Source of the DNA: Nannocystis pusilla
GTDB taxonomy: Bacteria > Myxococcota_A > Polyangia > Nannocystales > Nannocystaceae
NCBI RefSeq assembly: GCF_051105105.1
Contig: NZ_CP185339.1
Length of the DNA: 64,000 bases
Direction: 5' to 3' (one strand)
Notes under the pieces: model-generated
What the model was told of the DNA's origin: nothing
What the model saw: the letters and a program-made list of their open reading frames with translations, nothing else
The model's database searches: none
Shown here: piece by piece, positions 7,887-64,000 of the stretch
Layout: every line of letters begins with the position of its first letter
Position numbering within the stretch: position 1 is the first letter of the stretch
Made by a program: the position numbers and the translations under genes

Positions 7887-7888
7887 TG

Positions 7889-7935: not shown

Positions 7936-8121
7936 CCTAGGGGATCGAGCAGGGCACCGGAACCGTGATCGCGGCGACGCCTCGCCCCAGGAGGGTCGCG
8001 CCGCGGACCTACCTTGTGCGCCGGATCGCGGGCCGTCCGCTCGCCGGTCTTGCGACCACGTCACAGAAATTTCGTCGGTCGGCGCTGGCGCATCGGCCAG
8101 CGTCGTGGGAAAGATCAGCGC

Positions 8122-17333: not shown

Positions 17334-17612
17334 GACGCGGCCTCCTTGGAATTAGCGTGCCGCCCACTGCCGCGATTTGCACGCCAGATCACGTCCAGCG
17401 ACGATGTGTGCGTCTTCCTCCGCCGTGGATCGCGAGCATCGCCGCAGATCCGGCGAATTTCTCGGCGTCGGCGCCGATCGTGCGCATGACCGCCTGCTTG
17501 CATCGGACGGCGAAATGATCTTCACACGCCTCCTGTGCTGCGAATTCGACGCGATCTCCAGCGCGATCTCTTGCGCGTGCAACAACGACGGCGGTTCACA
17601 CGACCTCTCCGT

Positions 17613-18251
17613 GTGCTCCTCGACTTCATCGCGCCGCCGGTGTGCATCGCCTGTCGTCACCTCCTCCGGGCCCCGCCGGTCGGGGGCGTGCCGCCCCTGT
17701 GCAGTCGCTGCGCCCCCGAGCTCGCGCTGCTCGACCCGGCCGCGCGGCGCGTCGGCGCCGTCGAGGCCTGCTTCCTTTATGACGGCCCGCTCGCCGCCGC
17801 CGTCCGGCGGCTCAAGTTCGTCGGCGAGCTCGAGCTCGCCGGGCCGCTGGGCCGGCTCCTCGCCCACGCGCCGGTGTGGCGCGAGGGCTGGGATCTCGTC
17901 GCGCCGGTGCCTCTGCACTGGCGCCGCGCCCTCGCCCGCGGCTTCGACCAGGCCGCCTTGCTGGCTCGCTGGGCCGCCCGCGAGCACCCGACCGGCGCCC
18001 GCCTCGAGCCGCGCCTCCTGCAGCGCACGCGCGCCACGGCGCCGCAGAGCGAGCTCGACGGTCCGGCGCGCCGCGACAACCTCGCGGGCGCGGTCGTCGT
18101 GCGAGCCGGGCGGTCGCTCGTCGGCCGGCGGGTCCTCGTGGTCGACGACGTGACCACCACCGGCGCCACCCTGACCGCCTGCATCGCCGCCATACGGGCC
18201 GCAGGGGCCGCCCGCGCCGCCGGGCTTGCCCTCCTGCGGTCCGCTTTGTAG
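17613..18251 (+). CDS. ComF family protein (double zinc ribbon plus phosphoribosyltransferase domain)
   Basis: Zinc-ribbon pattern PPVCIACRHLL...LCSRCAPEL, and a PRTase motif RRVLVVDDVTTTGATL. The GTG start is placed where GC3 rises. Confidence 0.75.
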   Translation: MLLDFIAPPVCIACRHLLRAPPVGGVPPLCSRCAPELALLDPAARRVGAVEACFLYDGPLAAAVRRLKFVGELELAGPLGRLLAHAPVWREGWDLVAPVPLHWRRALARGFDQAALLARWAAREHPTGARLEPRLLQRTRATAPQSELDGPARRDNLAGAVVVRAGRSLVGRRVLVVDDVTTTGATLTACIAAIRAAGAARAAGLALLRSAL

Positions 18252-18266
18252 CTTTCCACCCCCGCC

Positions 18267-18743
18267 GTGAAGAAGACCGACAAGACCGCGACGAAGGACG
18301 GCCACATCTTCGTCCAGAACCGCCGAGCCACCTTCGAGTACGAGGTCCTCGAGCGCTACGAGGCCGGCCTCGCGCTCATGGGCAGCGAGGTCAAGTCGAT
18401 CCGCGACGGCCGCGCCAGCCTGGGCGAGTCGTACTGCCAGTTCCAGGGCGACCAGCTCTTCCTCTATCAATCGCACATCGGCGAGTACACGCAGGCGCAC
18501 GACCGCAACCACCTGCCGCTGCGCCCGCGCAAGCTGCTGCTGCACCGCAAGGAGCTCGACCACCTGACCGAGGCGGTCGACCAGGCCGGGCTCACGCTGA
18601 TCCCCCTGGCGCTGCTGGCCCGCAACGGCCGGATCAAGCTCGAGATGGCGCTGTGCCGCGGCAAGAAGACCTACGACAAGCGGGCCTCGATCAAGGAGCG
18701 CGAGCAGAAGCGTGAGATCGAGCGGGCCATCCGGGAGCGGTGA
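18267..18743 (+). CDS. smpB: SsrA-binding protein SmpB
   Basis: Translation IFVQNRRATFEYEVLERYEAGLALMGSEVKSIRDGRASLGESY matches the SmpB signature. The start is GTG. Confidence 0.9.
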   Translation: MKKTDKTATKDGHIFVQNRRATFEYEVLERYEAGLALMGSEVKSIRDGRASLGESYCQFQGDQLFLYQSHIGEYTQAHDRNHLPLRPRKLLLHRKELDHLTEAVDQAGLTLIPLALLARNGRIKLEMALCRGKKTYDKRASIKEREQKREIERAIRER

Positions 18744-18744
18744 C

Positions 18745-19488
18745 GTGAGCGGCCGGCGCTCGGACGGACCTGTCCCATCGGACACCCTCGCGGCCCTCGA
18801 CCGCGCCCGCGATCAGCCCGGCCCGCACCTCTGGTTGGTCCCCAGCCCGCCCGCCGCCGGCGACGCCGACGAGGCCCTGCGCGAGCTCGACGACCTGCTC
18901 GTCCGCGGCGAGCTCGACGAGCCCGCCGTCGCTCGCCTGGTGGCCCTGGCGCCGCGCGCCCCGGGCCGCCTACGGGCCGTCGTCGCCGCCCTCGCGGCCG
19001 CCGGCAGCCCCGCCGCGGTGGCCGGCCTGCTCACCCTGCCGCAGGTCCCCGGCGCGCTCGCGGCGGCGGCCCGCGCCCTCGCCCGCGGCCTCACCCGCGC
19101 CCTGCCCGGCTCCGCCGCCGCCCCGGTGTTCTTCGCCCTCGACTTCCGCGGCTCGCGGGCGCGGCCGTTCCCCGACCTGCTGCGGCGCGCCCAGCTCGTC
19201 GCCGCCGATCCGAGCGGCGCCCTGCGCCTCAACGTCCTCCGCGTCGACGGCAAGCCCGCCTATCGCCTGTCCTTTTGGCCAGACACGATCCCGCCGCGCC
19301 CGCGCGCCGAGCTCGCCCGCGCCTGCGCCGCCGACCTCGCGCTGCTCCACGGCCGCCTCGCGCGCCTCCGCGGCGCCCGCCTGTGGCTGAACGGCTTCTG
19401 CTTCCCTGACGACGGCCCGGTGTCGGTCGCCGCCCAGGGCCACCTGCTGGCCGCGTGGCTGACATGGTCCGAGGGACATGCGCCGTGA
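18745..19488 (+). CDS. Hypothetical protein, coupled upstream of the AAA ATPase gene
   Basis: GC3 is high. A GTG start overlaps the smpB stop; the first codons contain a GGACCTGTCC element, so the exact start is uncertain. Confidence 0.5.
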   Translation: MSGRRSDGPVPSDTLAALDRARDQPGPHLWLVPSPPAAGDADEALRELDDLLVRGELDEPAVARLVALAPRAPGRLRAVVAALAAAGSPAAVAGLLTLPQVPGALAAAARALARGLTRALPGSAAAPVFFALDFRGSRARPFPDLLRRAQLVAADPSGALRLNVLRVDGKPAYRLSFWPDTIPPRPRAELARACAADLALLHGRLARLRGARLWLNGFCFPDDGPVSVAAQGHLLAAWLTWSEGHAP

Positions 19489-19510
19489 GACATGACCTGA
19501 AGGACACCCC
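19461..19510. repeat. Palindromic decamer array (GACATGGTCC, GGGACATGCGC, AGACATGACC, GGACACCCC)
   Basis: Spans the junction between the hypothetical gene and the AAA ATPase gene. Period is 14 nt. Confidence 0.65.
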
Positions 19511-20981
19511 GTTCGCGCGCGCGCGCGTCCGCCTGGGCGAGGCGCTACAAGCCGGCGCGCGCGGCCTGGGGCTGCGCGCGGTCGACGAGGCGCGGGCGCT
19601 GCGGCTGTGCGAAGACACAGGCGAGCGCCTCGACTGGCCGGTCCACACCTGGAGCGCCGCCGGCGGGCGCGACGGCCTCGGCGCGCCCGAGCCGCTGCTC
19701 GACCTCCTGCGCGGCCTCCTGCGCGACCCCGATCCCGGCCTGTGGGTGCTGCTCAATCCGCCCCCGCTGGAGCCCGTCGCCTTGCGGGCCCTCCGCGAGC
19801 TCGCGCAGCGCAGCGTCGGTCCGGCGGTCGTCGTCGTCGGCGACCTCGCGCCTGCGCTCGTCGCCATCCCCGAGCTCGAGCTGCTGGAGCTCGAGCTGCC
19901 CGACGCCGACGAGCTCACCGGCCTCGCGGCCGACCTCGTCGACGAGCTGCGGATCGCCGGCCGTCCCGGCCCGGCCGCCGCGCTCGACCGCCGCGCGTCG
20001 CAGCTCGCCCACGCCGCCCTCGGCCTGTCGGAGCACCAGGCCCGTCGACTGCTGCGCCGGGCCGCCCACGCCCCCGCCGACGACGCCGCGCTCGCCGAGC
20101 TGGGCGCCGGCAAGGCCGAGCTGCTGCGCCGGGGCGGCCTGCTCGAGCGCGTCGAACCTGTCCCTTCAGACATGCTCGGCGGCCTCGCCCAGCTCAAGCA
20201 GTGGCTGGCCCGCCGCGCCCTCGCCCTCCGGCCCGAGGCCCGCGCCGCGGCGATCCCCGACCCGCGCGGCGTCCTGCTCGTCGGCGTGCAGGGCTGCGGC
20301 AAGAGCCTGGCCGCCCGCGTCTGCGCCCACGCGCTCGGCCTCGGCCTCCTGCGGCTGGAGCCGGGCCGGCTCTACGGCGGCACGCTCGGCGAGAGCGAGG
20401 CCAACCTGCGCCGCGTCACCGCCACGGTCGAGCGCATCGCTCCGGTCGCGCTGTGGATCGACGAGCTCGACAAGGGCCTGGCCGGCAGCGAAGGTCCGGC
20501 AAGCGACGGCGGCACCGCGGCGCGCGTGCTCGGCGGCCTGCTGACGTGGCTGCAGGAGCGCCGTCGTCCGGTGTTCGTGGTCGCCACCGCCAATCAGGTC
20601 ACGCGCTTGCCGCCCGAGCTGACACGTCGGGGCCGTCTCGACGAGATCTTCTTCGTCGATTTGCCCGATGCGGACGAACGCGCTGCCATCGCGGAGATCC
20701 ATCTCGAGCATGCGCCGCGCTCACACATGGGCGCCGCCCCGGTCCTCGCTGATCCGTTGCCCGACCTCGTCGACCTCGTACGCGCGGCCGACGGACTCTC
20801 GGGCGCCGAGATCGAGGGCGCGATCGTGGAAGCTCGCCTCGACGCGTTCGCCGAGTCGCGACCGCTCGCGCGCCGCGACCTCGCTCGCGCGCTCACCGCG
20901 ACCATCCCGCTCAGTCGCAGTCGTGCCGGCGAAATCACGGCCCTGCGTGCGTGGGCGAGCGCTGCGGCCCGCAGGGCTTGA
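19485..20981 (+). CDS. AAA+ family ATPase
   Basis: Walker A appears as GVQGCGKS, Walker B as ALWIDELD, and an arginine finger as RRGRLDEIFFV. The GTG start overlaps the upstream stop as GTGA. Confidence 0.8.
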   Translation: MRHDLKDTPFARARVRLGEALQAGARGLGLRAVDEARALRLCEDTGERLDWPVHTWSAAGGRDGLGAPEPLLDLLRGLLRDPDPGLWVLLNPPPLEPVALRALRELAQRSVGPAVVVVGDLAPALVAIPELELLELELPDADELTGLAADLVDELRIAGRPGPAAALDRRASQLAHAALGLSEHQARRLLRRAAHAPADDAALAELGAGKAELLRRGGLLERVEPVPSDMLGGLAQLKQWLARRALALRPEARAAAIPDPRGVLLVGVQGCGKSLAARVCAHALGLGLLRLEPGRLYGGTLGESEANLRRVTATVERIAPVALWIDELDKGLAGSEGPASDGGTAARVLGGLLTWLQERRRPVFVVATANQVTRLPPELTRRGRLDEIFFVDLPDADERAAIAEIHLEHAPRSHMGAAPVLADPLPDLVDLVRAADGLSGAEIEGAIVEARLDAFAESRPLARRDLARALTATIPLSRSRAGEITALRAWASAAARRA

Positions 20982-47922: not shown

Positions 47923-48685
47923 TCACGGCCCGGCGATCGCCCGCGCGGGGCTCGCCCCGCCGGCCCCGTCCTGAAGCAGCCGCTCGTACGCATAGAACCG
48001 GCGCAGGACCGCCTTCACGTACGCCCGCACCCCCGGGTGTGGCGGTACCCCGCCGTACTTCTGCACCGCGCCGGCGCCCGAGAAGTAACCGGCCGCCACC
48101 AGCACCATGTCGCCGCCGAACCGGTTGGCCAGGAGGCGCAGGAACTTGGCCCCGCCGTAGATGCTTCTGGCGTGGGTCGAACGGCTGCTGGACCCCGAGG
48201 AAGCGCGCAGTCGACGGCATCAGCTGCATCAGCCCCATCGCCCCGGTGCTGCTGACCGCCCCGGGATAGTAGTTGCTCTCGGTGTGAATCACCGCGCGCA
48301 CCAGCGACTCGGGCAGCTGATACAGCCGCGCCGCCCCGCGGATGTGCGTCTCCCAGCGACGCGAGCGTTCGTCGGCCAGCGCCTCGGCGACCTCGACCTG
48401 CGGATCGCGGCGCGGCGCCGATGGTTCCGCCTCGGCCGCCGCTGTCTTCGGCGCCCCGCCTTCGCCGCCGCTGCCTGGCATCTCTTCGACCTCGCGTCGT
48501 CCCGCGCCGACAGCGCGCACGGGCGTCACGTGGACCACCCCCTGCGCGTCCGTGTAGCGGCGGTAGGTCGGTTCGGCCGCACCCGCGGTGCCCGGAAGCG
48601 CGATCAGGATCGCCGCCAGCACCGCCGCGCAGCTGTCCCGCGTCTGCCAGGTCCGCCGCTGCGGCATGGGCCGATCCGCTCCCAC
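47923..48685 (-). CDS. Lytic transglycosylase (SLT domain) with signal peptide. Frame disrupted by +1 near 48160 (not at GACGTC).
   Basis: The catalytic region ESNYYPGAVSSTGAMGLMQLMPSTARFLGV...FDPRQ reads in one frame. The rest of the SLT domain (IYGGAKFLRLLANRFGGDMVLVAAGYFSGAGAVQKYGG) reads in the +1 frame. Confidence 0.7.
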
Positions 48686-48756
48686 GGGCCCAGCCTATCG
48701 CCGCCGCGGACCCTTGTCGACCGGCCCCGCCGCTCTGCTACTTTCGCCCCACCACC

Positions 48757-50370
48757 ATGACCGCCAGCACGCCGATCCACCACGCGCGCTACCTCGTGCT
48801 CGGCAGCGGGCTCGCGGGCCTCTACTTCGCCCTCGAGGTCGCGGATCGCGGACCGGTGGTGATCCTCACCAAGCACCGCGCCGAGTCGAGCAACACCCGC
48901 TGGGCCCAGGGCGGGATCTCGGCCGTGTTCGCGGGCGACGACTCGCTCGAGGAGCACATCGAGGACACGCTGACCGTCGGCGCCGGCCTGTGCAACCGCG
49001 ACATGGTCACCTACGCCGTCCAGCGCGGGCCCACCCTCGTGCGGCGCCTGGCCGAGCGCTACGGCGTCCGCTTCGATCGCGTCGGCGGCGACGAGCACGC
49101 CCCCTTCGAGCTCGGGCGAGAGGGCGGGCACTCGCGCCGGCGGGTCGTGCATCACCGCGACACCACCGGCTACGAGATCGAGCGCGCCCTGCTGGCGGCC
49201 GCGCACGCCCACCCCAACATCACCATCCACGAGCACCACACCGTCATCGACCTCCTGAGCTGGACCAAGGTCGACGGCAGCCGCGGCTGCTTCGGCGTGT
49301 ACGCGCTCAACAACGCCGCCGACCGCGTCGAGGCGTTCGTCGCCCCGATCACCGTCCTCGCCACCGGCGGAGCCGGCCGCGTCTACCGCTATACGACCAA
49401 CCCGGCGGTCGCCACTGCCGACGGCGTCGCGGTCGCCTACCGGATCGGCGCCTCGGTCGGCAACCTCGAGTTCATGCAGTTCCACCCGACCTGCCTGCAC
49501 CACCCCGACGCCAACACCTTCCTGATCTCGGAGGCGCTGCGCGGCGAGGGCGGCATCCTGCGGCGGGCCGACGGCAGCGATCTCATGGCCGAGCGGCACC
49601 CGATGGGCTCGCTCGCCCCGCGCGACGTTGTCGCCCGCGAGATCGACGCCGAGCTCAAGCGGTCGGGCGAGCGCTGCGTGTTCCTCGACATGACGCACCT
49701 CGATCCCGACTACGTGGTCAGCCGCTTCCCGGCGATCCACGCCCGCTGCATGTCGGTCGGCATCGACATGCGCAAGGACCCGATCCCGGTGGTCCCCGCG
49801 GCCCATTACATGTGCGGCGGCGTCGTCGTCGATCGCCACGGCCGCACCGACATCCCCGGCCTGATGGCGATTGGGGAGGTCGCGATGAGCGGCCTCCACG
49901 GCGCCTGCCGCCTGGCCTCCAACAGTTTGCTCGAGGCGGTCGTCCTCGCCGACGGCGCCGCCCAGGCCTGCGACGACTTCGGCCGCGGCCCGCCCGATCA
50001 GGTCAGCCCGTGGAACGAGGGCGCCGCGCGCGATTCGGACGAGGCGGTCATGGTCTCGGCCAACTGGGAGGAGGTGCGCGCCGCCATGTGGAACTTCGTC
50101 GGCATCGTCCGCTCGGACAAGCGCCTCGAGCGCGGGCGGCGGCGGCTCGACCTCATCCGCGAGGAGATCCTCGAGTACTACTGGAAATTCCGCGTCACCC
50201 GCGACGTGCTCGAGCTGCGCAACATCTCTCTGGTCGGCAGCCTCATCATCGACTGCGCCCGCCAGCGCAAAGAGTCGCGCGGCCTCCACTACACGATCGA
50301 CTACCCGACCACGCGCGACGAGTACGCGCACGACATCATCCTCGACAAGCGCAGCGGGCCCAAAGCCTGA
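48757..50370 (+). CDS. nadB: L-aspartate oxidase
   Basis: Translation MTASTPIHHARYLVLGSGLAGL. Flavoprotein motifs RWAQGGI and HYMCGG are present, and the C-terminus is RESRGLHYTIDYP. Confidence 0.9.
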   Translation: MTASTPIHHARYLVLGSGLAGLYFALEVADRGPVVILTKHRAESSNTRWAQGGISAVFAGDDSLEEHIEDTLTVGAGLCNRDMVTYAVQRGPTLVRRLAERYGVRFDRVGGDEHAPFELGREGGHSRRRVVHHRDTTGYEIERALLAAAHAHPNITIHEHHTVIDLLSWTKVDGSRGCFGVYALNNAADRVEAFVAPITVLATGGAGRVYRYTTNPAVATADGVAVAYRIGASVGNLEFMQFHPTCLHHPDANTFLISEALRGEGGILRRADGSDLMAERHPMGSLAPRDVVAREIDAELKRSGERCVFLDMTHLDPDYVVSRFPAIHARCMSVGIDMRKDPIPVVPAAHYMCGGVVVDRHGRTDIPGLMAIGEVAMSGLHGACRLASNSLLEAVVLADGAAQACDDFGRGPPDQVSPWNEGAARDSDEAVMVSANWEEVRAAMWNFVGIVRSDKRLERGRRRLDLIREEILEYYWKFRVTRDVLELRNISLVGSLIIDCARQRKESRGLHYTIDYPTTRDEYAHDIILDKRSGPKA

Positions 50371-52051: not shown

Positions 52052-52579
52052 GTGGCCACCGACATCAATGAGTCCGTCGAGATCCAGATCTCGACCTTGC
52101 CCTGGGAGCAGATCGCGGTCGACGCCTTCGTCTGTCCGACCAACTCCGAGGGCGTGATGAGTCACTTCCCGGCCAACAAGATCCGCGACCTTGCCGGTCG
52201 CGAGGTCGAGGCGATGGTGAAGGAGCACACCCCGCTGGCGATCGGCGCCGCGTTCGTGACGCCGGCGGGCAAGATGAAGGCGAAGTACCTCATCCATGTG
52301 CCCAACACCGATCGCCCCGGCGGTCGCGTCCAGGTCGAGGATGTCCTGCGCGCCACCGCGGCGGTGTTGGTGGCCTGCAAGGTCAAGGGCTTCACGAGCG
52401 TCGCCGTCCCGCTGATGGGTGCGTTCGAGCTCGGGATCCCGGCCGAGGAGGCCGCTCGCGCGATTCACAGCGAGCTCAAGGTCTACCGCGGCGACCGCCC
52501 GCTCCGCGCCTTCCTCATGGCCAAGGACGCCGACGACGTCGAGGTGTTCGAGCTGGCCATGGAAGGGAACATCCCGTAG
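52052..52579 (+). CDS. Macro domain (ADP-ribose binding/processing) protein
   Basis: Translation AFVCPTNSEGVMSHF...KYLIHVPNTDRPGG...VAVPLMGAFELGIP. Confidence 0.8.
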   Translation: MATDINESVEIQISTLPWEQIAVDAFVCPTNSEGVMSHFPANKIRDLAGREVEAMVKEHTPLAIGAAFVTPAGKMKAKYLIHVPNTDRPGGRVQVEDVLRATAAVLVACKVKGFTSVAVPLMGAFELGIPAEEAARAIHSELKVYRGDRPLRAFLMAKDADDVEVFELAMEGNIP

Positions 52580-54878: not shown

Positions 54879-55263
54879 CTCGAGATGCGAGCAGGGCCGG
54901 GGGGCCAGGTCCCGAGAGACTGGTGCGGCGCTGCGCACTCAGCGCGCAGCGTGTCCGGTGTCTCCAACGTAGCTTTTTTCCGAAGCTGGTGTTAGCGTGG
55001 CCGGCGAAAAGCCTTGACCGCAGGCTTGCCCGGCGAGCGCGGATGCTAGTTCGGACGCCAAACCTCGTAATCCGAGTGAGACGGGACACACGCGACGCCG
55101 TTACGGCCCCACGGACCTGGGCTGAGATGGCGTCGCCGCAGGCTCGCGTGAAGAACCTGTCCCAAAGATATGAGCAGGCGCGGTATTGTACCCAGACCAA
55201 CATCGGCGGGAGCTGCCCCTCCGATCGCGGTCGCGGCCCACGTGGGCCACGGGGAGGCGAATA

Positions 55264-56193
55264 ATGGCAACCACGATCGCCCAGATCGGTGGATTTGAAC
55301 TTTGGGACATCCTGCAACTTGCGCAGACATCGCGCATGTCGATCAAGCTGTCCGTCGAGTCGCCGCATGGCGTCGGCGCGATGTTTTTCCAGGGCGGCAA
55401 CCTCGTCCACGCCGAGACCGGCGCGGCCCAGGGTGACGACGCCGTCAACACGATCCTCGACTGGCGCGAGGGCAGCGTCTCGTCTTCGCAGTTGCCCGAG
55501 AACTGCCCGCAGACGGTGCGCCACACCTCGATCGTCGCGTTGTTGATGGACCGGGCGCGTCAGCGCGACGAGGCTTCGCGCAACGAGCCGCCGCCGCGCA
55601 GCGAACCGCCGCGCAGCGAGCCGCCGCCGCGAAGCGAGCCGGCGCCACGCGCCGCGACGCCGCCCTCCCCTCCGCCGGTGCCGGTGATCGAGAAGCCGCA
55701 GCGAGCTGCGCCGGTCACCGTCCCACCACTTCCGCCGCTGCCCGTCACCCCACCGACTCCGGCCTACGCGGCCGCCCCCAACGTTGCAGCGCGCGACAAG
55801 GAGCTGTCAGACATGGACCTCAAGGTCGTGAAGGCCATCCTCGAGGAGCTCGACGACCACCTCATGGGCGGCCTCATCAGCGTCGACATCATCAGCAAGG
55901 CCTCGGGCATGTCGCTCGCGGGTATCAACTCGGCGCCCAAGGCGTGCGCCATGTTCAACCGCCTGTCCGAGCAGCTGCACAACGCGCTGACCCGCTCGGA
56001 AGACGCCCTCGCCAAGGGCATCAACAAGTTCATCATCGAGGGCGACAACGGCCTCCTGATCTTCGTGATCGAGCTCGACGAGCGCCACCGCTGGGCGATC
56101 CTCGTCGACGGCGTCAAGGCGCAGCTCGGGTGGGTGTTCGTCATCATCCCCGAGCTCCAGCCGCGCCTCATCGCCGCGCTGAAGGGTCGCTGA
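55264..56193 (+). CDS. DUF4388-like N-terminal domain, Pro-rich linker and roadblock/LC7-like C-terminal domain
   Basis: GGGGAGG ribosome-binding site. Translation MATTIAQIGGFELWDILQLAQTSRMSIKL. The linker has PPRSEPPRSEPPPRSEP repeats. Confidence 0.6.
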   Translation: MATTIAQIGGFELWDILQLAQTSRMSIKLSVESPHGVGAMFFQGGNLVHAETGAAQGDDAVNTILDWREGSVSSSQLPENCPQTVRHTSIVALLMDRARQRDEASRNEPPPRSEPPRSEPPPRSEPAPRAATPPSPPPVPVIEKPQRAAPVTVPPLPPLPVTPPTPAYAAAPNVAARDKELSDMDLKVVKAILEELDDHLMGGLISVDIISKASGMSLAGINSAPKACAMFNRLSEQLHNALTRSEDALAKGINKFIIEGDNGLLIFVIELDERHRWAILVDGVKAQLGWVFVIIPELQPRLIAALKGR

Positions 56194-56197
56194 GCCG

Positions 56198-56270
56198 ACT
56201 GTCCTGAGGGACATGTCCTTATGGGCATGTCCCTCGGCACCTGCTCCCGAGCACCTGCCCGAACAAACCT
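56198..56270. repeat. Palindromic decamer array (GGGACATGTCC, GGGCATGTCC, GCACCTGCTCC, GCACCTGCCC, ACCTGGCC)
   Basis: Starts 5 nt after the upstream stop. Confidence 0.75.
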
Positions 56271-56288
56271 GGCCGATCGGACAGCGCC

Positions 56289-56894
56289 GTGGTCTACATC
56301 AGCAAGGTCTACACGAAGTTCGGCGACCGCGGCGACACGATGCTCGCCAGCGGCGACACCGTCGGCAAGGACGCCCCGCGGGTCGCCGCTTACGGCGAGG
56401 TCGACGAGCTCAACGCGGTGCTCGGCGTGCTGCGCGTCGAGCTCTCCCGCGTCGACGAGCCCGGCGAGCGGCGCGAGTTCCTGGCCGCGCTCGACGCCTC
56501 GCTCGCGCGGATCCAGCAAGAGCTGTTCGACCTCGGCGCCGAGCTGGCGACGCCCGGCGCGACCGAAGGCAAGGCGCCGCTCAAGGTCGAGGAGGCCGAC
56601 GTCACGCGGCTCGAGCACGAGCTCGACGCGTGGAACGCCGACCTGCCGCCGCTGCGCAGCTTCATCCTGCCGGGCGGCGGGCCGCTCGGCGCCTGGGCCC
56701 ACCTCGCGCGCACCGTGTGCCGCCGCGCCGAGCGCAGCGTCGTCGCGCTCGCTCGCGTCGAGCCGGTCCGCGGCGAGGCCGTCCGCTACATCAATCGCCT
56801 GAGCGACTGGTTCTTCGTCGTCGCCCGCGCCGCGGCCCACGCCTTCGCCGTCCCCGAGGTGCTGTGGGATACCCACCGGAAGCCCGCCCCGTGA
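56289..56894 (+). CDS. PduO-type ATP:cob(I)alamin adenosyltransferase
   Basis: GTG start. Translation MVYISKVYTKFGDRGDTML...RVAAYGEVDELNAVLG. Confidence 0.8.
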   Translation: MVYISKVYTKFGDRGDTMLASGDTVGKDAPRVAAYGEVDELNAVLGVLRVELSRVDEPGERREFLAALDASLARIQQELFDLGAELATPGATEGKAPLKVEEADVTRLEHELDAWNADLPPLRSFILPGGGPLGAWAHLARTVCRRAERSVVALARVEPVRGEAVRYINRLSDWFFVVARAAAHAFAVPEVLWDTHRKPAP

Positions 56895-57181: not shown

Positions 57182-57985
57182 ATGGCCGACGACGATCCGA
57201 TCACCGAGGGAACTCTCGATCGCCACCTCCATCGGCCGCTCGCAGCGTGGGTCCTCGAGCGAGTGCGACCGGCGCCGAGCGTCGAGCTGCTCACCCTCGC
57301 CGGACTGGTGGTCGGACTCACCGGCGCCGTCGCCGTGCTGCTGGCCGCGCCGAGCGGCGTCGACTGGATCTTCCCCGCCTGGCTGCTGTTCGCCTTCACC
57401 ATCGCCAGCCGGTGTCGCCGCCTCGTCGCCGGCGCCGCGGAGGCCGAGGCCGGCACGCTCGAGTTCGCGATCGGCGCCGCCTTCTGGGTCGCGCTGACGC
57501 TGCGAGCCGCGCCCGCCAACGCGTGGGCCTGCACCCTCGCGTCGGTGGCGCTGGTCAGCGCGCTGATCCAGGTCGGGCTCCACGCCGAGCTGCGTCGGCG
57601 ATTCCGCGACCTGACCGGCGGAGGCGGCGACGCAGCGCCACCCTCGCCGCGGCCCTCGGTGGCGGCGCTGTCCCGCGGGCTCGGCCCCGCTGTGTTCCAC
57701 GACATCGCCGCCGCGCTTCTCGGGCCGGAGCACACCGGCCCCCGTCCCACCGCCGGCGCGGCCCGCTCGCTGCTGGCCCCTCCCCTGCGCATGGCGGCGC
57801 CGCTGAGCCACGACACCCACCTCGCGCTGCTCTACGTCGCCACCGCCGCCGCCGCGCTCCGGCTCGACCTGTCCTTCTGGACAGCCGCGCTCGCGGTCGC
57901 GCTCGGGCTCAACGTGTGGGCGCTCCTGGTCGTGTCGGCCTGGCGCCGCGCCGAGGCGCTGGTCCGCCGACTTCCGCCCGCCTGA
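57182..57985 (+). CDS. Hypothetical polytopic membrane protein
   Basis: 267 aa with multiple hydrophobic segments. Confidence 0.55.
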   Translation: MADDDPITEGTLDRHLHRPLAAWVLERVRPAPSVELLTLAGLVVGLTGAVAVLLAAPSGVDWIFPAWLLFAFTIASRCRRLVAGAAEAEAGTLEFAIGAAFWVALTLRAAPANAWACTLASVALVSALIQVGLHAELRRRFRDLTGGGGDAAPPSPRPSVAALSRGLGPAVFHDIAAALLGPEHTGPRPTAGAARSLLAPPLRMAAPLSHDTHLALLYVATAAAALRLDLSFWTAALAVALGLNVWALLVVSAWRRAEALVRRLPPA

Positions 57986-58452: not shown

Positions 58453-58719
58453 TCAGGACGCGGCGGCCTGCTTCTCTTGCACCGTCTTGTGCAGCAGGTC
58501 GACGAGCTCGTTGATGTTCGTCAGCTTGTTGAGCTCGGCGCGGGGGATCTTCACCTTGAGCTCGCGCATGCTGCAGGAGACGACCTCGACGATGTCGAGG
58601 CTGTTGGCGCCGAGGTCCTTCATCGACTTGGCGGGGTCGACCTGGGCCGCATCGATCCCTTCGACGGTGTCCACGAGGTGGCGCTTGACGACGGCCAAGA
58701 CATCATCGCGGGTGCTCAT
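58453..58719 (-). CDS. Acyl carrier protein
   Basis: 88 aa with the phosphopantetheine attachment motif DLGANSLDIVEVV. Confidence 0.85.
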   Translation of the reverse strand: MSTRDDVLAVVKRHLVDTVEGIDAAQVDPAKSMKDLGANSLDIVEVVSCSMRELKVKIPRAELNKLTNINELVDLLHKTVQEKQAAAS

Positions 58720-58782
58720 TCTCGGTTCTCCTTGGTGGGCGCGGTGCAGGTTGCCCGCAGCGAATCTCGCAGGAAGCGAAGG

Positions 58783-59598
58783 TCAAAAACTCAGCCCGAG
58801 GCGCTCGCGCGCCGAAAACAGGCGAACGACGTTGTCGGCGAAACCGAGGCCCCTGTCCAGTAGCAGAATCTGCCCCTTGACCCCGTCCATGAGACCGCTG
58901 CAGAGGGCCAGCGCCGCGGCCGCGACCTCGTCGGGGTCGATGAACCAGCCTTCCGAGTAGTACTTCTTGCAGAACGGCACGAAGTCGGGCCCGAAGGTGG
59001 CCTCCAGCGATGCAGTCTCGACCGGGTTCGCGCGCAGGATGTTGATGCGAACATCCTCACTGAGCAGATCTGCCGTGAGGTAGCGACAGAAGGTCTCCAT
59101 CACGGTCTTGCTCGCGGCCACGAAGTCGTAGCCCGGGAGGAAGTACTCAGGCCCGCGCGACGACATTCCCACCGCGTAGCGGGGCCAGCGACCGAAGGTC
59201 TCGCGGATGGCCTGCAGGTAGCCGACGAACGGCCACGCGCTGTAGCCGAGGCTGCGGAGGAAGCTCTTCTTGTCGAGGTCCTCGTGCGACTTGCTGACGT
59301 GGGCGAACGACACGTTGCTGATCAGCGCGAACACGGCGTCGTGGTCGCGCTTGACCGCCTCCATCAGCGCCTCGGTGTCCTCGTCTTGCGACGCGTCGGC
59401 CTCGACGATCGTCGGCGCCGGCGCGCCCGCGGCGTCGAAGCGGGCCCGCAGCTCGTCTTCGTCGGCCGAGCCCCAGCGGTGCGTCAGGTACACGTGCGCG
59501 CCGTACTTGCCGAACAGCAGGCCGGTCGCCAGGCCGATGCCCGCCGTCCCGCCGGTGACGATGACGGCCTTGCCCTTGAGGTCGTTGCGGAGGATCAC
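58783..59598 (-). CDS. SDR family oxidoreductase, paralog B (atypical FabG/FabL-like)
   Basis: GGAAGGAG ribosome-binding site plus GTG start. Translation VIVTGGTAGIGLATG; catalytic YDFVAASK. Confidence 0.8.
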   Translation of the reverse strand: MILRNDLKGKAVIVTGGTAGIGLATGLLFGKYGAHVYLTHRWGSADEDELRARFDAAGAPAPTIVEADASQDEDTEALMEAVKRDHDAVFALISNVSFAHVSKSHEDLDKKSFLRSLGYSAWPFVGYLQAIRETFGRWPRYAVGMSSRGPEYFLPGYDFVAASKTVMETFCRYLTADLLSEDVRINILRANPVETASLEATFGPDFVPFCKKYYSEGWFIDPDEVAAAALALCSGLMDGVKGQILLLDRGLGFADNVVRLFSARERLGLSF

Positions 59599-60410
59599 GC
59601 CGGAGCTCCTTCCTTGTCGCTGCCGCCGACGAGCCGCGGCCCGAGCGTGGCGACGTTGTCGACGAACGCCGCGCCGCGGTCGAGCGTCAGCACCTGCCCG
59701 CCCATGGCGTCGAACAGCCCGCTGCACAGCGCGAGGGTCGTGTCGGCGACCTCGTCGACGGTGCACGCGAACTCGGGGAACTTGCCCGCCAGCTCGCGCT
59801 GCTGGGCGGCGAACATCTGCTCGTAGCTCTCGGTCATCACCTGGCGGGTGCGCAGGGCGTTGACGATGCAGCCGTGCTCGTAGAGGTGCGTGCTCATGTA
59901 GCGCACGAACGTCTCGAGCACCGCCTTGGCCACGGCCACGTAGTCGTAGCCGGGGTAGTGCGTGTCGGGCCCGTCGGACGACATCGCCAGCGCGTAGCGG
60001 GGGTAGCGACCGAACGCGGCGTGCAGCGCCTGCAGGTAGCCGACGAACGGCCAGCTCGAGTACTCGAGGCTCTTGTACAGCGCGCGCCGGGTGTGCTTCT
60101 CCGGCCCTTCGCCGCGCTGGACCACGCAGACGTTGCTGATGAACGCCCACACGCCGTCGCACTCCTCCTTGAGCCGCGCGGTCAGCTTGTCGGTGTCCTC
60201 CTCGCGCGACGCGTCGGCCTCGAGCACCAGCGGCGCCGGGGCCCCGACGGCGGTAAAGCGGGCCTTGAGCTCGTCCTCGTCGGCCGAGCCCCAGCGGTGC
60301 GTCAGCACCGTGCGCGCGCCCTGGCGCCCGAACGCGAGCCCGCACGCGAGGCCGATGCCGCGCGTCCCGCCCGTGATCAAGACGACCCTGTCCTTGAAGT
60401 CATTGAGCAA
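59595..60410 (-). CDS. SDR family oxidoreductase, paralog A
   Basis: Translation VVLITGGTRGIGLACG; catalytic YDYVAVAK. About 55-60% identical to paralog B by eye. Confidence 0.8.
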   Translation of the reverse strand: MLNDFKDRVVLITGGTRGIGLACGLAFGRQGARTVLTHRWGSADEDELKARFTAVGAPAPLVLEADASREEDTDKLTARLKEECDGVWAFISNVCVVQRGEGPEKHTRRALYKSLEYSSWPFVGYLQALHAAFGRYPRYALAMSSDGPDTHYPGYDYVAVAKAVLETFVRYMSTHLYEHGCIVNALRTRQVMTESYEQMFAAQQRELAGKFPEFACTVDEVADTTLALCSGLFDAMGGQVLTLDRGAAFVDNVATLGPRLVGGSDKEGAPA

Positions 60411-60413
60411 GCG

Positions 60414-61190
60414 TCATCCTCCCTGGCCTGGCCCGTAGTTCGTGCGGATCCGCGCCACCGTCTCCGGGTCGGCGAAGCATACCTCGTGCATCATCGACTC
60501 GACCGTACGCGCCTCCTCGAAGGCGCGGCGGCGCGGCAACGCCAGCGCACGTTTCAGCAACAGCAGCGCAGCCCGCGGCTTGTCGGCGATCCGCGCCGCC
60601 ATGTCGAGCGCCCGCGGCAGCACCTCGGCGCGCGGCACGACCGCGTTGACCTGGCCGCGCCCGGCCAGCTGCTCGCCGCGGAAGTACTGCGAGCCGTACA
60701 GCATCTCGGCCCCGACGTACTCGCCGAACGCGAACTGCACGAGGCGCGTGGCGCCCATCCCCGGCGTGAAGCCGAGGTCCATGAAGTTGGCGCCGTAGCG
60801 GCTCTCGCGGGCCATCACGACCATGTCGCAGGCGAGGCCGAACACCAGGCCGCCGCCGACCGCGGGCCCCGCCATCGCGGCGATCGTCGGCACCGGCACC
60901 TCGAGCAGCGCGCGCGTCAGCAGCAGGTCGTACGGCGCGATCGTGCCGTCGGCGAGGCCGAGCAGGACGTCGCGGTCGCCGCCGGCGGAGAACACCTCGG
61001 GCAGGCCGGCGATCACGACCACGCGCACGTCGGCGCGCTGGCCGAGGTCCCCCAGCGCGCGCGTCAACACGGCGACGAACGCCCGGCCGAACGCGTTCTT
61101 GCCCGCCGCGTCGCGCATGGTCAGCACGGCCACGCCGTCGCGCTCGAGCGTCACCTCGACGAGGCTGTCTGTTTGGACATGCGCGTTCAT
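60414..61190 (-). CDS. Enoyl-CoA hydratase/isomerase, PksI/ECH2-like
   Basis: Crotonase fold. Translation MNAHVQTDSLVEVTLERDGVAVLTMRD...FSAGGD. Confidence 0.8.
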   Translation of the reverse strand: MNAHVQTDSLVEVTLERDGVAVLTMRDAAGKNAFGRAFVAVLTRALGDLGQRADVRVVVIAGLPEVFSAGGDRDVLLGLADGTIAPYDLLLTRALLEVPVPTIAAMAGPAVGGGLVFGLACDMVVMARESRYGANFMDLGFTPGMGATRLVQFAFGEYVGAEMLYGSQYFRGEQLAGRGQVNAVVPRAEVLPRALDMAARIADKPRAALLLLKRALALPRRRAFEEARTVESMMHEVCFADPETVARIRTNYGPGQGG

Positions 61191-61942
61191 TCCTGTCCTT
61201 TCAGCCTGGCGAACCACGGCGGCGCCTGCCCCTCGGCCAGCAGGGCCGCCAGCGCCGCCCGCAGCTCGGGGTCCTCGAGGTCGGCCGCGGTCTGGGCCAC
61301 CCCGCCCTGCCCGGCCGGCCCGGTGATCCTCTTGAGCGTCGCCACCGCCTGCGGGCGCGCGCGCAGCAGCGAGCGCATGAGCCCGCGCAGCGCCTTGTCC
61401 GGGTCGTCCGCGACCACATCGACGAGGCCCCACGGCTCGGCCTGGGCCGCGGTCACCAGCTCGCCGGTCAGCGCCAGCCGCCGGGTCCGCCGCGCGCCGA
61501 TCCGGGCCTCGAGCGCCGGGAAGATCACCGCCGGCACCAGCCCGTAGCGCAGCTCCGGCAGCGCGAACGTGGCCGCCGGCGCCGCCACCACCAGGTCGCA
61601 CGCGGCCGCCAGGCCGACCCCGCCGCCGCTGGCCGCGCCGGTGACCACCGCGATCGTCGCCAGCTTCGCGCTCGCCAGCAGCTCGAGGCAGCCGGCGAAG
61701 CGCTGCATCGCCTCGCGCATCTGCGCCGACGGGGTCCGCAGCGCCGCCGCGAGGTCCATGCCGGCGCAGAACTCGGGGCCCTCGCTGGCGATCACCAGCG
61801 CGCGCGCCGGTCCGGCGACCGCCTGCTCGACCGCGTCGGCCAGCGCGGCGATCCCGTCGGTGTCCAATGCGACATGTCCTCCGGGACCTGCCCCGAGGAA
61901 CAGCCGATGGATCAGCTCGCCCTCTTCGCAGCGGACGCGCAT
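61187..61942 (-). CDS. Enoyl-CoA hydratase/isomerase, PksH/ECH1-like
   Basis: Crotonase fold. Translation ALVIASEGPEFCAGMDL. The N-terminus contains a palindromic element copy (GACATGTCC..GGACCTGCCCC). The start is uncertain. Confidence 0.75.
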   Translation of the reverse strand: MRVRCEEGELIHRLFLGAGPGGHVALDTDGIAALADAVEQAVAGPARALVIASEGPEFCAGMDLAAALRTPSAQMREAMQRFAGCLELLASAKLATIAVVTGAASGGGVGLAAACDLVVAAPAATFALPELRYGLVPAVIFPALEARIGARRTRRLALTGELVTAAQAEPWGLVDVVADDPDKALRGLMRSLLRARPQAVATLKRITGPAGQGGVAQTAADLEDPELRAALAALLAEGQAPPWFARLKGQE

Positions 61943-62050
61943 CGGCTCACCGCTCCCGCGCAGGGGGACGAGGGGACGAGCGATCCGGCCGCGCGCCGAG
62001 GGGCGGCGCGGCAAGCGTGGCGAGGGGCGTGCGCGGCATGATTCTGGCCC

Positions 62051-63292
62051 TCAGGACAGGCGGTACTCCCGCTGGAAGCCGCGCACCGCGTCGAGCACGA
62101 GGCGGCCCTTGCCGGCGTAGGCGCGCTCGTAGAGCCCGCGCAGGCCCGACTGGTCGACCTCGTAGTCGCTCTGGTCGATGAAGGCGGCGCGCTGGCGCTC
62201 GAGCGCCTCGTACTCCTCGATGGTCAGCGGCATGCGGCGATCGAGGCCGGCGCCGACGCGCTGGCCCGCGACCTGCTCGCGCGCGCGCTCGCCGACGGTC
62301 GCGCGGTAGAACTCGGCGCACGAGCCCGAGCCGTAGGAGAAGATCGAGACCTTGTCGCCCGCGCGCAGCTCGGGGTCGGCGTCGATGAGGCCGAGCATGG
62401 CGATGAAGGTCGCCGAGGTGTAGGTGCCGCCGAAGCGCGAGTTGTAGCGCAGCGCCTGCTTCGACTTGCGCTCGAAGTGAGCCCTGGCCTCGCGCAGCGA
62501 CATCTCGTGCGGGCCGCGGCGGAGCAGCGCCCGGTGGGCCCGGAAGGTCATGCCGCCGAACGGCACGTGGTAGATGTGGCGCGCGAACTCGGCGTCGTAG
62601 TCGACCATGCCCGAGCGGGCGACGAAGTGGTCGTAGGCGCCCTCGAGCGCGTCGAGGTAGCCGTACAGGCTGGTGTCGGCGTGGCCGACCTCCTTCGTCG
62701 AGGTCGGGCGGTAGGTGTCGAAGATCTCCTGCGTCCAGTAGCCGCAGGTGTCGAGGTCGATCTCGAGGACGTTGGGCTGGGCGCTGACCAGCATCGCCGT
62801 GGCCGCCGCGCCGAGCACGTACTCCCACGGCTGGCCGAGGTGCACGCGGCTCTGATCGGTGCAGACCACCAGCGCCTTCTTGCCCGGCGCCGCGCCCGAC
62901 GCGACCCAGTGGGCCGCCATCATCAGGCCGCCGGTGCCGCCGTAGCAGGCGTGCTTGGTCTCGAAGTTGCGGCAGTTGGCGGTCAGCCCGCAGTAGCGCT
63001 GCACGTAGGTCGAGATCGGCTTGCCGAAGTCGACCGACGACTCGGTGCCGACGATCACGAGCTCGATGTCCTTGCGGTCCTCGGGCCGGACGATCTGCAG
63101 CGCGGCGTTGACCGCCATCGTCACCGGGTCTTCCCACGTCGGGTTGAGCGAGCGCTCGCTGACCCACAGCTCCTCGAGCGGGTGGCGCGGATCGTGATCG
63201 CGCGCCTCCGCGAGCAGCTTCATGTCGAGCGAGAGCGTGCACGGGTACGCCGTGATCCGCTCGATGCCCACGCGCGGCCGGTGGTGCGCCAT
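62051..63292 (-). CDS. HMG-CoA synthase-like beta-branching enzyme (PksG/CurD-type)
   Basis: Translation VGIERITAYPCTLSLDMKLLAEARDHDP...ACYGGTGGLMMAAHWV...SYGSGSCAEF. Confidence 0.85.
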   Translation of the reverse strand: MAHHRPRVGIERITAYPCTLSLDMKLLAEARDHDPRHPLEELWVSERSLNPTWEDPVTMAVNAALQIVRPEDRKDIELVIVGTESSVDFGKPISTYVQRYCGLTANCRNFETKHACYGGTGGLMMAAHWVASGAAPGKKALVVCTDQSRVHLGQPWEYVLGAAATAMLVSAQPNVLEIDLDTCGYWTQEIFDTYRPTSTKEVGHADTSLYGYLDALEGAYDHFVARSGMVDYDAEFARHIYHVPFGGMTFRAHRALLRRGPHEMSLREARAHFERKSKQALRYNSRFGGTYTSATFIAMLGLIDADPELRAGDKVSIFSYGSGSCAEFYRATVGERAREQVAGQRVGAGLDRRMPLTIEEYEALERQRAAFIDQSDYEVDQSGLRGLYERAYAGKGRLVLDAVRGFQREYRLS

Positions 63293-63307
63293 CGCCGTCC
63301 TCTCCTC

Positions 63308-64000
63308 TCAGTACGTCCAGTCGAGGCCGCCGGTGACCGGCACGACCTGACCGTTGATGAAGCTGCCGCCCGTGGCCAGGAACAGGACCGTCGCCGCCAG
63401 CTCGGCCAGCGTGCCCATGCGCCCCTTCGGCATCGGGCAGTACTGCTGCCAGTAGTCCTTGGCCGCCTGCGGCATGGTCTCGCGCGTCATGTCGGTGTCG
63501 AAGAAGCCCGGCACGACGACGTTGGCGGTGATGCCCTTGCGCCCGTACTCCTTGGCGAGCGCCTGGGTGAAGCCGTGCAGGCCGGCCTTGCTGGCGGCGT
63601 AGTTGGCCTGGCCGGCCGCGCCGTTGTGCTGGATCGACGAGATGTTGACGATCCGCCCGAACCGCGCCGCCAGCATGGCCGGCAGGAACGCGCGCACGAC
63701 GTAGAACGGCCCGTGCAGGTTGGTGGCGAGCACGTCGTGCCACTCCTCGTCGGACATCGAGACCACGAGGTTGGCGCGGTTGATGCCGGCGCAGTTGACG
63801 ATCACCTCGACGCTGTCGAAGTCGTTCAGCACCTCGTCGGCGACCTCGCCGACGCGGTCGGAGCGGCTCACGTCGAGCGCGTAGCCCTTGACCTTCGCGC
63901 CCGGGCGGATCGCCGCCGCCTCGGCCTCGATCTTGCGCGCAGCGTCGTCGTTGCTGCGGTACGCGAACGCGACGTCGTGGCCGGCGCGCACCGCCTCGAG
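63308..64000 (-). CDS. 3-oxoacyl-ACP reductase (FabG-like SDR). Partial: the N-terminus runs off the window.
   Basis: Translation NCAGINRANL...NISSIQHNGAAGQANYAASKAGLHGFTQALAKE...VVPGFFDTDMT. Confidence 0.85.
   Translation of the reverse strand, partial: LEAVRAGHDVAFAYRSNDDAARKIEAEAAAIRPGAKVKGYALDVSRSDRVGEVADEVLNDFDSVEVIVNCAGINRANLVVSMSDEEWHDVLATNLHGPFYVVRAFLPAMLAARFGRIVNISSIQHNGAAGQANYAASKAGLHGFTQALAKEYGRKGITANVVVPGFFDTDMTRETMPQAAKDYWQQYCPMPKGRMGTLAELAATVLFLATGGSFINGQVVPVTGGLDWTY

Follow-up and report, generated by a model that had tools for sequence, protein, structure and literature searches.

Bacteria are known to place methyl branches in lipid chains either by means of branched-chain amino-acid primers or by S-adenosylmethionine-dependent methylation, and myxobacteria possess an alternative, HMG-CoA-derived route to isovaleryl-CoA that employs MvaS, LiuC, AibA/AibB, and AibC. 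In polyketide biosynthesis, β-methyl branching follows the logic of cassettes built around a 3-hydroxy-3-methylglutaryl-ACP synthase (HMGS), in which decarboxylating ketosynthases (KSs) of the CurC/PksF type have Ser in place of the active-site Cys. In the bacterial ceramide pathway, Spt enzymes can use a fatty acyl group bound to an acyl carrier protein (acyl-ACP), and the genes of Spt, ceramide synthase, and ceramide reductase frequently lie together in one cluster (PMC11324152, PMC11334938, and PMC11087976). Here, we analyzed a stretch of 64,000 nucleotides (nt) from Nannocystis pusilla (assembly GCF_051105105.1, contig NZ_CP185339.1; hereafter the window), the end of which carries seven minus-strand genes. 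They make up the last two-thirds (3′ end) of an 11-gene operon for, in this order, an α-oxoamine synthase (AONS), an acyltransferase (AT), a dehydratase (DH), a KS, a ketoreductase (KR), an HMGS, two crotonase-family proteins (ECH1 and ECH2), two paralogous short-chain dehydrogenases/reductases (SDRs) taken as putative enoyl reductases (ENR-A and ENR-B; SDR-A and SDR-B below), and an ACP. We favor, with moderate confidence, the view that the operon encodes a self-contained acyl-ACP synthase of discrete enzymes (type II) equipped with β-methyl branching and with release by condensation with an amino acid, whose product would probably be a sphingoid- or ceramide-like methyl-branched lipid.

An operon that continues beyond the window

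The sequence-only reading of the window had described an orphan β-branching cassette and had recommended looking past position 64000. The orphan state proved to be an artifact of the window boundary, since six Nannocystis genomes that are collinear with the window at 87 to 97% nucleotide identity carry KS, DH, AT, and AONS genes upstream. The upstream genes were read from congeners, using a scan of one genome per species that yielded 31 loci with HMGS relatives. In the congener with 97% identity (L001), window position 64000 corresponds to position 9291, and the genes upstream of the FabG-like KR gene encode the KS, a FabZ-like DH, a FabD-like AT, and the AONS, all on the same strand and separated by short gaps or joined by 4-nt overlaps. 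We infer that the part of the N. pusilla contig beyond the window matches these congeners. The extension thus supplied a KS and neither a trans-AT nor a modular polyketide synthase (PKS): no modular PKS was found in the 10 kb of L001 upstream or in the sequence flanking about 35 loci, and no PKS or nonribosomal peptide synthetase was found across the whole 64-kb window. With no PKS in the window or the flanks and with all components being discrete single-domain proteins, membership in a trans-AT PKS cluster was rejected.

The KS (436 amino acids [aa] in L001) has PRK07103 as its best NCBIfam match and FabF enzymes as its closest solved structures. Its Cys-His-His triad is intact in 28 of 28 full-length orthologs, with the Cys lying in the motif GGACAS (GAACAS in L031). 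Because the catalytic Cys is kept, unlike in the Cys-to-Ser decarboxylase KSs, we read this protein as a condensing enzyme. The FabD-like AT gene (L001 positions 6348 to 7358, about 2 to 3 kb past the window end) codes for the Gln, Ser, Arg, and His residues of its family. The nucleophile motif of the AT reads GLSLG instead of the near-universal GHSLG, and this form is invariant across phyla (orthologs in 26 loci). The FabZ-like DH has an intact LPHR region.

The AONS is a 424-aa fold-type I pyridoxal 5′-phosphate (PLP) enzyme in L001, assigned to Aminotran_1_2 and to the α-oxoamine synthase family. Its catalytic residues (His, Asp-x-x-His, the PLP Lys, and the C-terminal Arg) are conserved in the motifs THLCSIDG, DEAHS, TFSKAF, and RFRV, and its closest structures, each aligned over the full length, are ThAOS (246 bits) and the Spt of S. 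multivorum (245 bits). Among the NCBIfam models, it scored 331 bits with bioF (TIGR00858; cutoff, 426), 302 bits with Kbl (cutoff, 460), and 299, 290, and 232 bits with the Spt models NF047600, NF047599, and NF047603 (cutoffs, 640, 500, and 670, respectively). A thioesterase was found neither in the operon nor in the window or the flanks. The AONS is thus the sole candidate for off-loading the acyl-ACP, and we regard it as the release enzyme. An extended SDR gene (NAD-dependent epimerase/3-β-HSD family) lies divergently upstream of the operon in L001.

β-Branching enzymes and the carrier protein

Against solved structures, the HMGS matched CurD at 274 bits and PksG at 237 bits in end-to-end alignments that include the C-terminal segment of about 45 aa, whereas its MvaS-type matches (182 to 225 bits) ended near residues 366 to 376, and solved MvaS structures ranked below CurD and PksG. 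The MvaS equivalog model TIGR01835 gave 256 bits and did not reach its cutoff of 360. The catalytic Glu (GTES), Cys (HACYGGT), and His (YHVPFGG) are conserved. The enzyme therefore groups with CurD and PksG and not with MvaS, as expected from its earlier designation as PksG type.

The ECH2 is most probably a decarboxylase of the cassette kind: in the PDB it matched PksI (155 bits) and CurF (142 bits), and the next match dropped to 86 bits, which marks it as a clear relative of PksI and CurF-ECH2 at the level of sequence. The ECH1 has a crotonase fold and matched PRK07112 best in NCBIfam (120 bits; cutoff, 250), and its position between HMGS and ECH2 is kept in the loci whose sequence reaches that far. 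From this conserved position, we presume that it dehydrates the HMG-type adduct.

The ACP is the sole one of the operon. Its core, LGANSLDIVEVVSCSMRELKVKVPR, is nearly invariant across phyla, its sequence contains no Trp, and its best NCBIfam match is PRK07117 (60.8 bits; cutoff, 79), a model that we take to be AcpK-like from its neighboring PRK numbers. The HMGS/ECH1/ECH2/ACP logic of β-branching, proposed before from the window, is supported.

A pair of paralogous reductases

Two tandem SDRs with YxxxK motifs had been listed in the sequence-only reading. The pairing of paralogs stood, and the motif did not. SDR-A and SDR-B share 51% identity, and pairwise alignment places Val at the classical Tyr position of both, where the motif is Y-x6-K instead (YDYVAVAK in SDR-A and YDFVAASK in SDR-B); SDR-A also contains TGGTRGIG. 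Among the reductases of the window, YxxxK occurs only in the FabG-like KR (YAASK). In every locus with full-length sequence, both paralogs carry TGGTxGIG together with Y-x6-K and have no YxxxK in that region, and Y157 and K164 of SDR-B are invariant among 35 aligned sequences. This combination is typical of FabL/FabI-type enoyl-ACP reductases, and the twin proteins are better read as such a pair than as generic YxxxK SDRs, an assignment we consider fairly likely on the basis of the motif.

Other comparisons were less discriminating. The FabL model NF005975 gave 70 to 72 bits with the paralogs (70.5 for SDR-A, where it ranks among the top NCBIfam matches; cutoff, 328), and glucose dehydrogenase models scored similarly. 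The AlphaFold2 model of SDR-B (predicted local distance difference test score, 90.6) has a Rossmann SDR fold, for which Foldseek returned a tie between the FabI of T. thermophilus and an aminoacetone/aminopropanol dehydrogenase; the latter, from a mycobacterial microcompartment, is the top PDB match (6ci9; 27% identity), and a PDB sequence search likewise tied FabI with classical SDRs. An SDR that reduces α-amino ketones would also fit after the AONS, so the enoyl-reductase assignment is not secure.

Whatever their substrate, the two proteins appear to belong together. In a neighbor-joining tree, the second-position copies split from the first-position copies, which points to an old duplication that has been kept everywhere. 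In Plesiocystis pacifica SIR-1 (L036, 18109-19821) and Pseudenhygromyxa sp. (L037, 18110-19840), the paralogs are fused head to tail into a two-domain protein of 570 to 576 aa with a linker of about 30 aa, the N-terminal half of which is orthologous to SDR-A (64 to 67% identity) and the C-terminal half to SDR-B (70 to 71%). This natural fusion indicates that the paralogs act as a pair. A large protein collection contained at least 1179 relatives of SDR-B at an E value of ≤1e-20, all of them unnamed or generically named.

Conservation across phyla and variable neighbors

The 11-gene order is found in Nannocystis spp., in metagenome-assembled genomes (MAGs) of Nannocystaceae and Polyangia, and elsewhere among the Myxococcota. 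A Kofleriaceae MAG shows it with slight rearrangements, and of cultured marine myxobacteria, P. pacifica SIR-1 and Pseudenhygromyxa sp. have it. MAGs assigned to Planctomycetota (two), "Pseudomonadota" (one), and Eisenbacteria (one) share it, as do further metagenome contigs. Counted by locus, the order holds in the 31 genome loci and in L032 to L037. The AONS gene comes first in most loci, across phyla.

Neighboring genes were compared by all-versus-all clustering of the open reading frames (ORFs) of the loci with the core masked, given the conserved shadow ORFs in high-GC DNA. Candidate ketone reductases adjoin the core in two forms, as an extended SDR in Nannocystis, L017, L031, Plesiocystis, and Pseudenhygromyxa and as a classical SDR in L021, L023, L025, L027, and L032. 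A GNAT-like gene adjoins it in six loci (Plesiocystis, Pseudenhygromyxa, L009, L010, L014, and L017), with orthologs sharing 50 to 57% identity across lineages; in L009, L010, and L014, it is accompanied by a second ACP gene and a fatty-acyl-AMP ligase gene. GNAT-like and epimerase-family genes both stand beside the AONS gene in L036, L037, and L017 (at 8221-9447 and 7086-8228, respectively, in the Plesiocystis locus L036), and a GNAT-like gene does so in L009, L010, and L014; these were compared with bCerS and CerR by domain class only. In the Myxococcota MAG locus L027, a gene for a 131-aa ACPS-type phosphopantetheinyl transferase (5788-6180) lies directly upstream of the AT gene, which is consistent with a dedicated carrier-protein system.

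Several loci have additional genes of their own. In the Planctomycetota loci L023 (15933-17737) and L025 (16440-18234), the AONS gene is followed by an FAD_binding_4/ALO-type oxidase gene (DprE1/sugar-lactone-oxidase family) with a small partner ORF, and in the Kofleriaceae locus L031 (12949-15798), epimerase-family, oxidase, and SnoaL-like domains stand in one apparent 950-aa ORF ahead of the AONS gene; such neighbors suggest lineage-specific oxidation or epimerization of the product. Locus L034, a metagenome contig with the same layout as the Nannocystaceae MAG locus L013, has sterol-reductase (ERG4/ERG24), ferredoxin, and cytochrome P450 genes a few kilobases from the cluster (17172-20834), and these surroundings may be a sterol-pathway neighborhood. 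The core is split in L024, where genes for an α/β-hydrolase (UPF0227), queC, and a radical-SAM protein (possibly queE-like) lie between the SDR/ACP part and the HMGS gene (7747-9816); neither AONS nor DH was visible in this locus, and the chain might be released by the hydrolase instead. In N. pusilla Na p29 (L002), the KS, ECH2, SDR-B, ACP, and epimerase-family genes are frameshifted, in that assembly only (e.g., at 8188-8291, 12624-12633, 14110, 14744-14747, and 4307), and these frameshifts probably represent long-read indel errors rather than pseudogenes.

Gene coordinates, junctions, and flanking sequence

ORFs in the window (G+C content, 72%) were identified with a third-position GC filter and an ORF listing, followed by Pfam and NCBIfam profile searches. 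The filter and the list delineated an unbroken minus-strand series from 64000 down to 58453, and all seven ORFs of the sequence-only reading were present at the coordinates it gave, with their families confirmed (Table 1). Its 4-nt overlaps were borne out as well, as ATGA at the ECH1/ECH2 junction and as GTGA at the SDR-A/SDR-B junction, where SDR-B starts with GTG and overlaps the SDR-A stop. RBS-like purine-rich runs (RBS, ribosome-binding site) precede every start in the series. The KR scored 216.7 bits with TIGR01830 (cutoff, 297.75); about 20 of its N-terminal residues lie outside the window, and the full 250-aa ortholog is encoded at L001 9231-9983. As had been reported, no KS/AT module lies downstream of the ACP gene within the window, and none was found elsewhere in the 64 kb.

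Table 1. Operon genes and other features of the window, with positions and the supporting match or comment.
Feature	Position	Strand	Match or comment
FabG-like 3-oxoacyl-ACP reductase (KR), cut by the window edge	63308-64000	-	adh_short_C2, E = 7e-48
HMG-ACP synthase (HMGS)	62051-63292	-	TIGR01835, E = 4.5e-76
Crotonase at the ECH1 position	61187-61942	-	ECH_1, E = 3e-31
ECH2 decarboxylase, PksI/CurF-ECH2 type	60414-61190	-	NF005496, 274.6 bits (cutoff, 215)
SDR paralog A, putative FabL/FabI-like enoyl-ACP reductase	59595-60410	-	adh_short_C2, E = 1e-24
SDR paralog B, putative FabL/FabI-like enoyl-ACP reductase	58783-59598	-	adh_short_C2, E = 9e-32
Stand-alone ACP	58453-58719	-	PP-binding, E = 2e-9
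Convergent intergenic spacer closing the operon, 467 nt	57986-58452
Genes beyond the spacer	57182-57985, 56213-56894, 55186-56193	+	Unrelated, conserved within Nannocystis only
Macro-domain protein	52052-52579		No link to the operon
Succinate dehydrogenase/fumarate reductase-type flavoprotein	48421-50370		No link to the operon
Ser/Thr protein kinase-TPR fusion	4626-7886		No link to the operon

The convergent genes past the spacer encode a DUF4388 protein, hypothetical proteins, and a macro-domain protein. A scan of the ACP-distal spacer found no canonical terminator or promoter. The spacer contains short GC-rich hairpin units in several copies, e.g., CGCACCTGGCCCGAAGGCCAGG at 58012, 58068, and 58202, as well as a 32-nt unit at 58041, 58160, and 58228; these repeats are either REP-like elements or T-less terminators.

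Proposed pathway and its alternatives

The gene content, gene order, motifs, conservation, and reductase fusion observed in these loci led us to propose the following scheme. Its chemistry is deduced throughout from family membership and gene order, as are the repeated use of the KS, how many branches there are and where they lie, how long the chain is, and which amino acid is condensed. The AT would place malonyl on the single ACP, and the KS, with its Cys-His-His triad, would prime and then elongate the chain. In ordinary rounds, the β-keto group would be handled by the KR, the DH, and an enoyl reductase. At least once, the HMGS would instead add an acetyl unit to the β-keto group, and the adduct would be dehydrated by ECH1 and decarboxylated by ECH2 to yield 3-methyl-2-enoyl-ACP, which an enoyl reductase would saturate, leaving a methyl branch. 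Should branching take place in the first round, on acetoacetyl-ACP, isovaleryl would be formed, i.e., an iso-branched chain end. The PLP-dependent AONS would then condense the chain with an amino acid in a decarboxylative Claisen reaction and so release a methyl-branched 2-amino-3-keto lipid (a 3-keto-sphingoid-type base), the ketone of which the extended SDR beside the operon may reduce; in related genera, the GNAT-like enzyme may N-acylate the amine to form a ceramide-like lipid. The link to sphingolipids is drawn because the bacterial ceramide pathway relies on the same three types of enzyme, an AONS, an N-acyltransferase, and an NDUFA9-like reductase. Of the two possibilities raised before, the second, a small stand-alone branched-lipid pathway, is supported.

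Several observations weigh against this scheme. The window ends inside the KR gene, and the upstream genes are those of congeners. The ECH1 is not specifically PksH/CurE-like, as generic enoyl-CoA hydratases are its best PDB matches (97 bits) and PksH (64.5 bits) ranks behind about 17 of them. The AONS falls under every NCBIfam equivalog cutoff (bioF, Kbl, the three Spt models, ALAS, and CqsA), such that the scores point to no particular amino-acid substrate, and its gene does not adjoin the core in L013/L034, L017, L024, or L027. The assignment of the SDR pair to the enoyl reductases derives from a motif, with sequence and fold tying with classical SDRs. The extended SDR gene of Nannocystis is flanked by genes for UDP-glucose pyrophosphorylase and PGI and could therefore encode a sugar-nucleotide enzyme, and both the Nannocystis locus and the window lack a GNAT-like gene. 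Finally, nothing shows in which round, or how often, the HMGS acts.

One alternative is that the operon makes a signal or another specialized metabolite: a short branched acyl-ACP, such as isovaleryl-ACP, would be converted by the AONS into a small α-amino ketone, in the manner of CqsA or LqsA, or into a precursor of a pyrazine or alkaloid, and variable neighbors (the FAD-linked oxidase, the SnoaL-like protein, and an extra SDR) would modify it. In keeping with this, the AONS family includes the autoinducer synthase CqsA (199 bits in NCBIfam and 103 bits in the PDB), the FAD_binding_4/ALO oxidase and small ORF accompany the core in L023 and L025 and the oxidase/SnoaL-like ORF in L031, the top Foldseek match of SDR-B is an aminoacetone/aminopropanol dehydrogenase, and no data constrain the chain length. 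However, CqsA is the weakest of the AONS matches, and nearly every locus contains KR and DH, which implies at least one full reductive elongation round. Moreover, the GNAT, ACP, and fatty-acyl-AMP ligase genes beside some cores point to fatty N-acylation, i.e., to a lipid. We consider a small-molecule product unlikely.

Rather unlikely, too, is that the operon supplies iso-acyl-ACP to general lipid synthesis as the ACP analogue of the myxobacterial Aib bypass, with the AONS being one of several consumers or a separate matter. The actions of HMGS, dehydration, decarboxylation, and enoyl reduction on acetoacetyl-ACP would indeed yield isovaleryl-ACP, the MvaS of M. xanthus is fairly close to this HMGS (225 bits), and the loci with a detached AONS gene, among them L024 with its α/β-hydrolase, would be accommodated. 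On the other hand, the AONS gene heads the operon in most loci across phyla, no glycerolipid acyltransferase gene is linked to the core, and if the product simply entered the housekeeping fatty acid synthase (FAS), there would be no need for a private ACP, AT, KS, KR, DH, and reductases.

A further possibility extends the favored scheme. If the HMGS set acted repeatedly, in alternation with fully reducing rounds, every pair of one branching and one reducing round would contribute a C5 "isoprane" unit, such that a regular, isoprenoid-like polymethyl chain would be built from acetate alone, and the AONS would release a phytanyl-like sphingoid base. Such alternation would explain why the reductase pair is obligatory, with one member serving the 3-methyl-2-enoyl-ACP and the other the ordinary 2-enoyl-ACP. 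We regard this version as quite unlikely. If it were true, it would define a new lipid class common to Myxococcota and Planctomycetota, and a free-standing system with a Cys-containing PksF-like KS would, as a corollary, resemble the ancestor of the β-branching cassettes recruited by PKSs.

More doubtful is the first option of the sequence-only reading, a tailoring cassette acting in trans on a β-ketoacyl-ACP made elsewhere by an FAS or a PKS, with a PksF-like KS that only makes acetyl-ACP. The best NCBIfam matches of the KS, ACP, ECH1, and ECH2 carry neighboring numbers (PRK07103, PRK07117, PRK07112, and PRK07110), which we take to stand for PksF, AcpK, PksH, and PksI of the Bacillus pksX cluster, respectively. 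Yet the catalytic Cys of the KS is kept in all 28 orthologs, the operon has its own KR, DH, and reductases, a complete set that makes an external synthase unnecessary, and there is no PKS in the 64-kb window or in the flanks of about 35 loci. A cofactor pathway, in which a BioF-like AONS would act on a dicarboxylate thioester from HMGS chemistry as in pimelate/biotin or aminolevulinate formation, is highly improbable. The top NCBIfam match of the AONS is bioF, and several sources name its homologs "8-amino-7-oxononanoate synthase," but the bioF cutoff was not reached, the Spt and Kbl models score nearly as high, no bioA, bioD, or bioB gene lies in any flank, and a bona fide ECH2 decarboxylase would strip the free carboxylate; a biotin-like role was rejected as unlikely on the last two grounds. 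That the HMGS is a primary-metabolism MvaS of the mevalonate pathway with fortuitous neighbors is hardly conceivable and was rejected, for although HMG-CoA synthase models do match it, TIGR01835 missed its cutoff, CurD and PksG are closer and are aligned through a C-terminal segment outside the MvaS alignments, neither HMG-CoA reductase nor mevalonate kinase was among the proteins scanned, and the gene is operon-coupled to ECH1, ECH2, and ACP.

Implications

All parts of the operon come from known families, and none of its modules follows an unfamiliar logic, but the gene set was not found described in a full-text literature search. As far as this search shows, what is undescribed is the combination of a free-standing type II synthase, a full β-branching set, a Cys-containing cassette-like KS, an obligatory reductase pair, AONS release, and cross-phylum conservation. 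If the proposed scheme holds, it would represent a third bacterial way of placing methyl branches in lipid chains and the first case of polyketide-style HMGS β-branching on a free-standing type II synthase with a sphingolipid-type terminal condensation. The scheme further predicts that Nannocystaceae, as well as uncultured Myxococcota and Planctomycetota, contain a branched amino-lipid or ceramide not yet described, and it is relevant to current surveys of which bacteria produce sphingolipids and to how lipids serve as biomarkers. The enzyme set is compact and testable, and cultured hosts exist (Nannocystis spp. and P. pacifica). The system would allow one to address how the HMGS chooses its round, why paired enoyl reductases are needed, and how β-branching cassettes evolved.

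Relation to described systems

The operon shares with the HMGS cassettes of bacillaene (PksC, AcpK, PksF, PksG, PksH, and PksI) and curacin (CurB to CurF) an HMGS of the CurD/PksG type, an ECH2 of the PksI/CurF type, a crotonase at the ECH1 position, a small stand-alone ACP, a FabD-like AT, and a FabF-family KS, all encoded on one strand, and it resembles curacin also in that an enoyl reductase would act after ECH2. In contrast to these cassettes, it is accompanied neither by a modular PKS, trans- or cis-AT, nor by Trp-flagged acceptor ACP domains, and its single ACP must be both donor and acceptor. The KS keeps the Cys-His-His triad where the cassettes have the Cys-to-Ser decarboxylase form, the putative enoyl reductases are SDR-type (Y-x6-K) proteins rather than MDR-type (medium-chain dehydrogenase/reductase) domains, and the KR, DH, and AONS are additions.

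When compared with the ceramide pathway of the Caulobacter type (Spt, AcpR, AasR, bCerS, and CerR; PMC11324152, PMC11087976, and PMC11334938), both systems link an AONS-family enzyme to a dedicated ACP. An NDUFA9/epimerase-family reductase is adjacent, and a GNAT-like N-acyltransferase is found in Plesiocystis, Pseudenhygromyxa, and four MAG loci. However, the operon apparently has a private branching synthase that makes the acyl-ACP de novo, whereas the ceramide pathway ligates a premade fatty acid. Furthermore, the AONS fails the three NCBIfam Spt cutoffs, the Nannocystis locus has no GNAT-like gene, and no signal peptide is obvious in the reductase, whereas a periplasmic location is reported for CerR.

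With type II FAS (FabD, AcpP, FabF, FabG, FabZ, and FabI/FabL), the operon has in common one discrete protein per activity and intact motifs throughout, namely, the Ser, His, and Arg of the AT, the Cys-His-His of the KS, the YxxxK of the KR, the LPHR region of the DH, and the Y-x6-K of the reductases. It differs from type II FAS in that every component falls under the housekeeping equivalog cutoffs, FabH is absent, the reductase paralogs are obligatorily paired, the AT has GLSLG for GHSLG, HMGS, ECH1, and ECH2 are inserted, and the AONS takes the place of acyltransferases. Finally, the resemblance to the Aib route lies in the chemistry, since an HMG-type adduct, its dehydration and decarboxylation, and enoyl reduction would turn acetoacetyl into isovaleryl, and both systems occur in myxobacteria. 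Here, however, the thioesters would be bound to ACP instead of CoA, the reductases are of the SDR type, a crotonase-type ECH2 occupies the place of the glutaconate-CoA-transferase-like AibA/B, and the branching steps are joined to an elongating synthase with an AONS.

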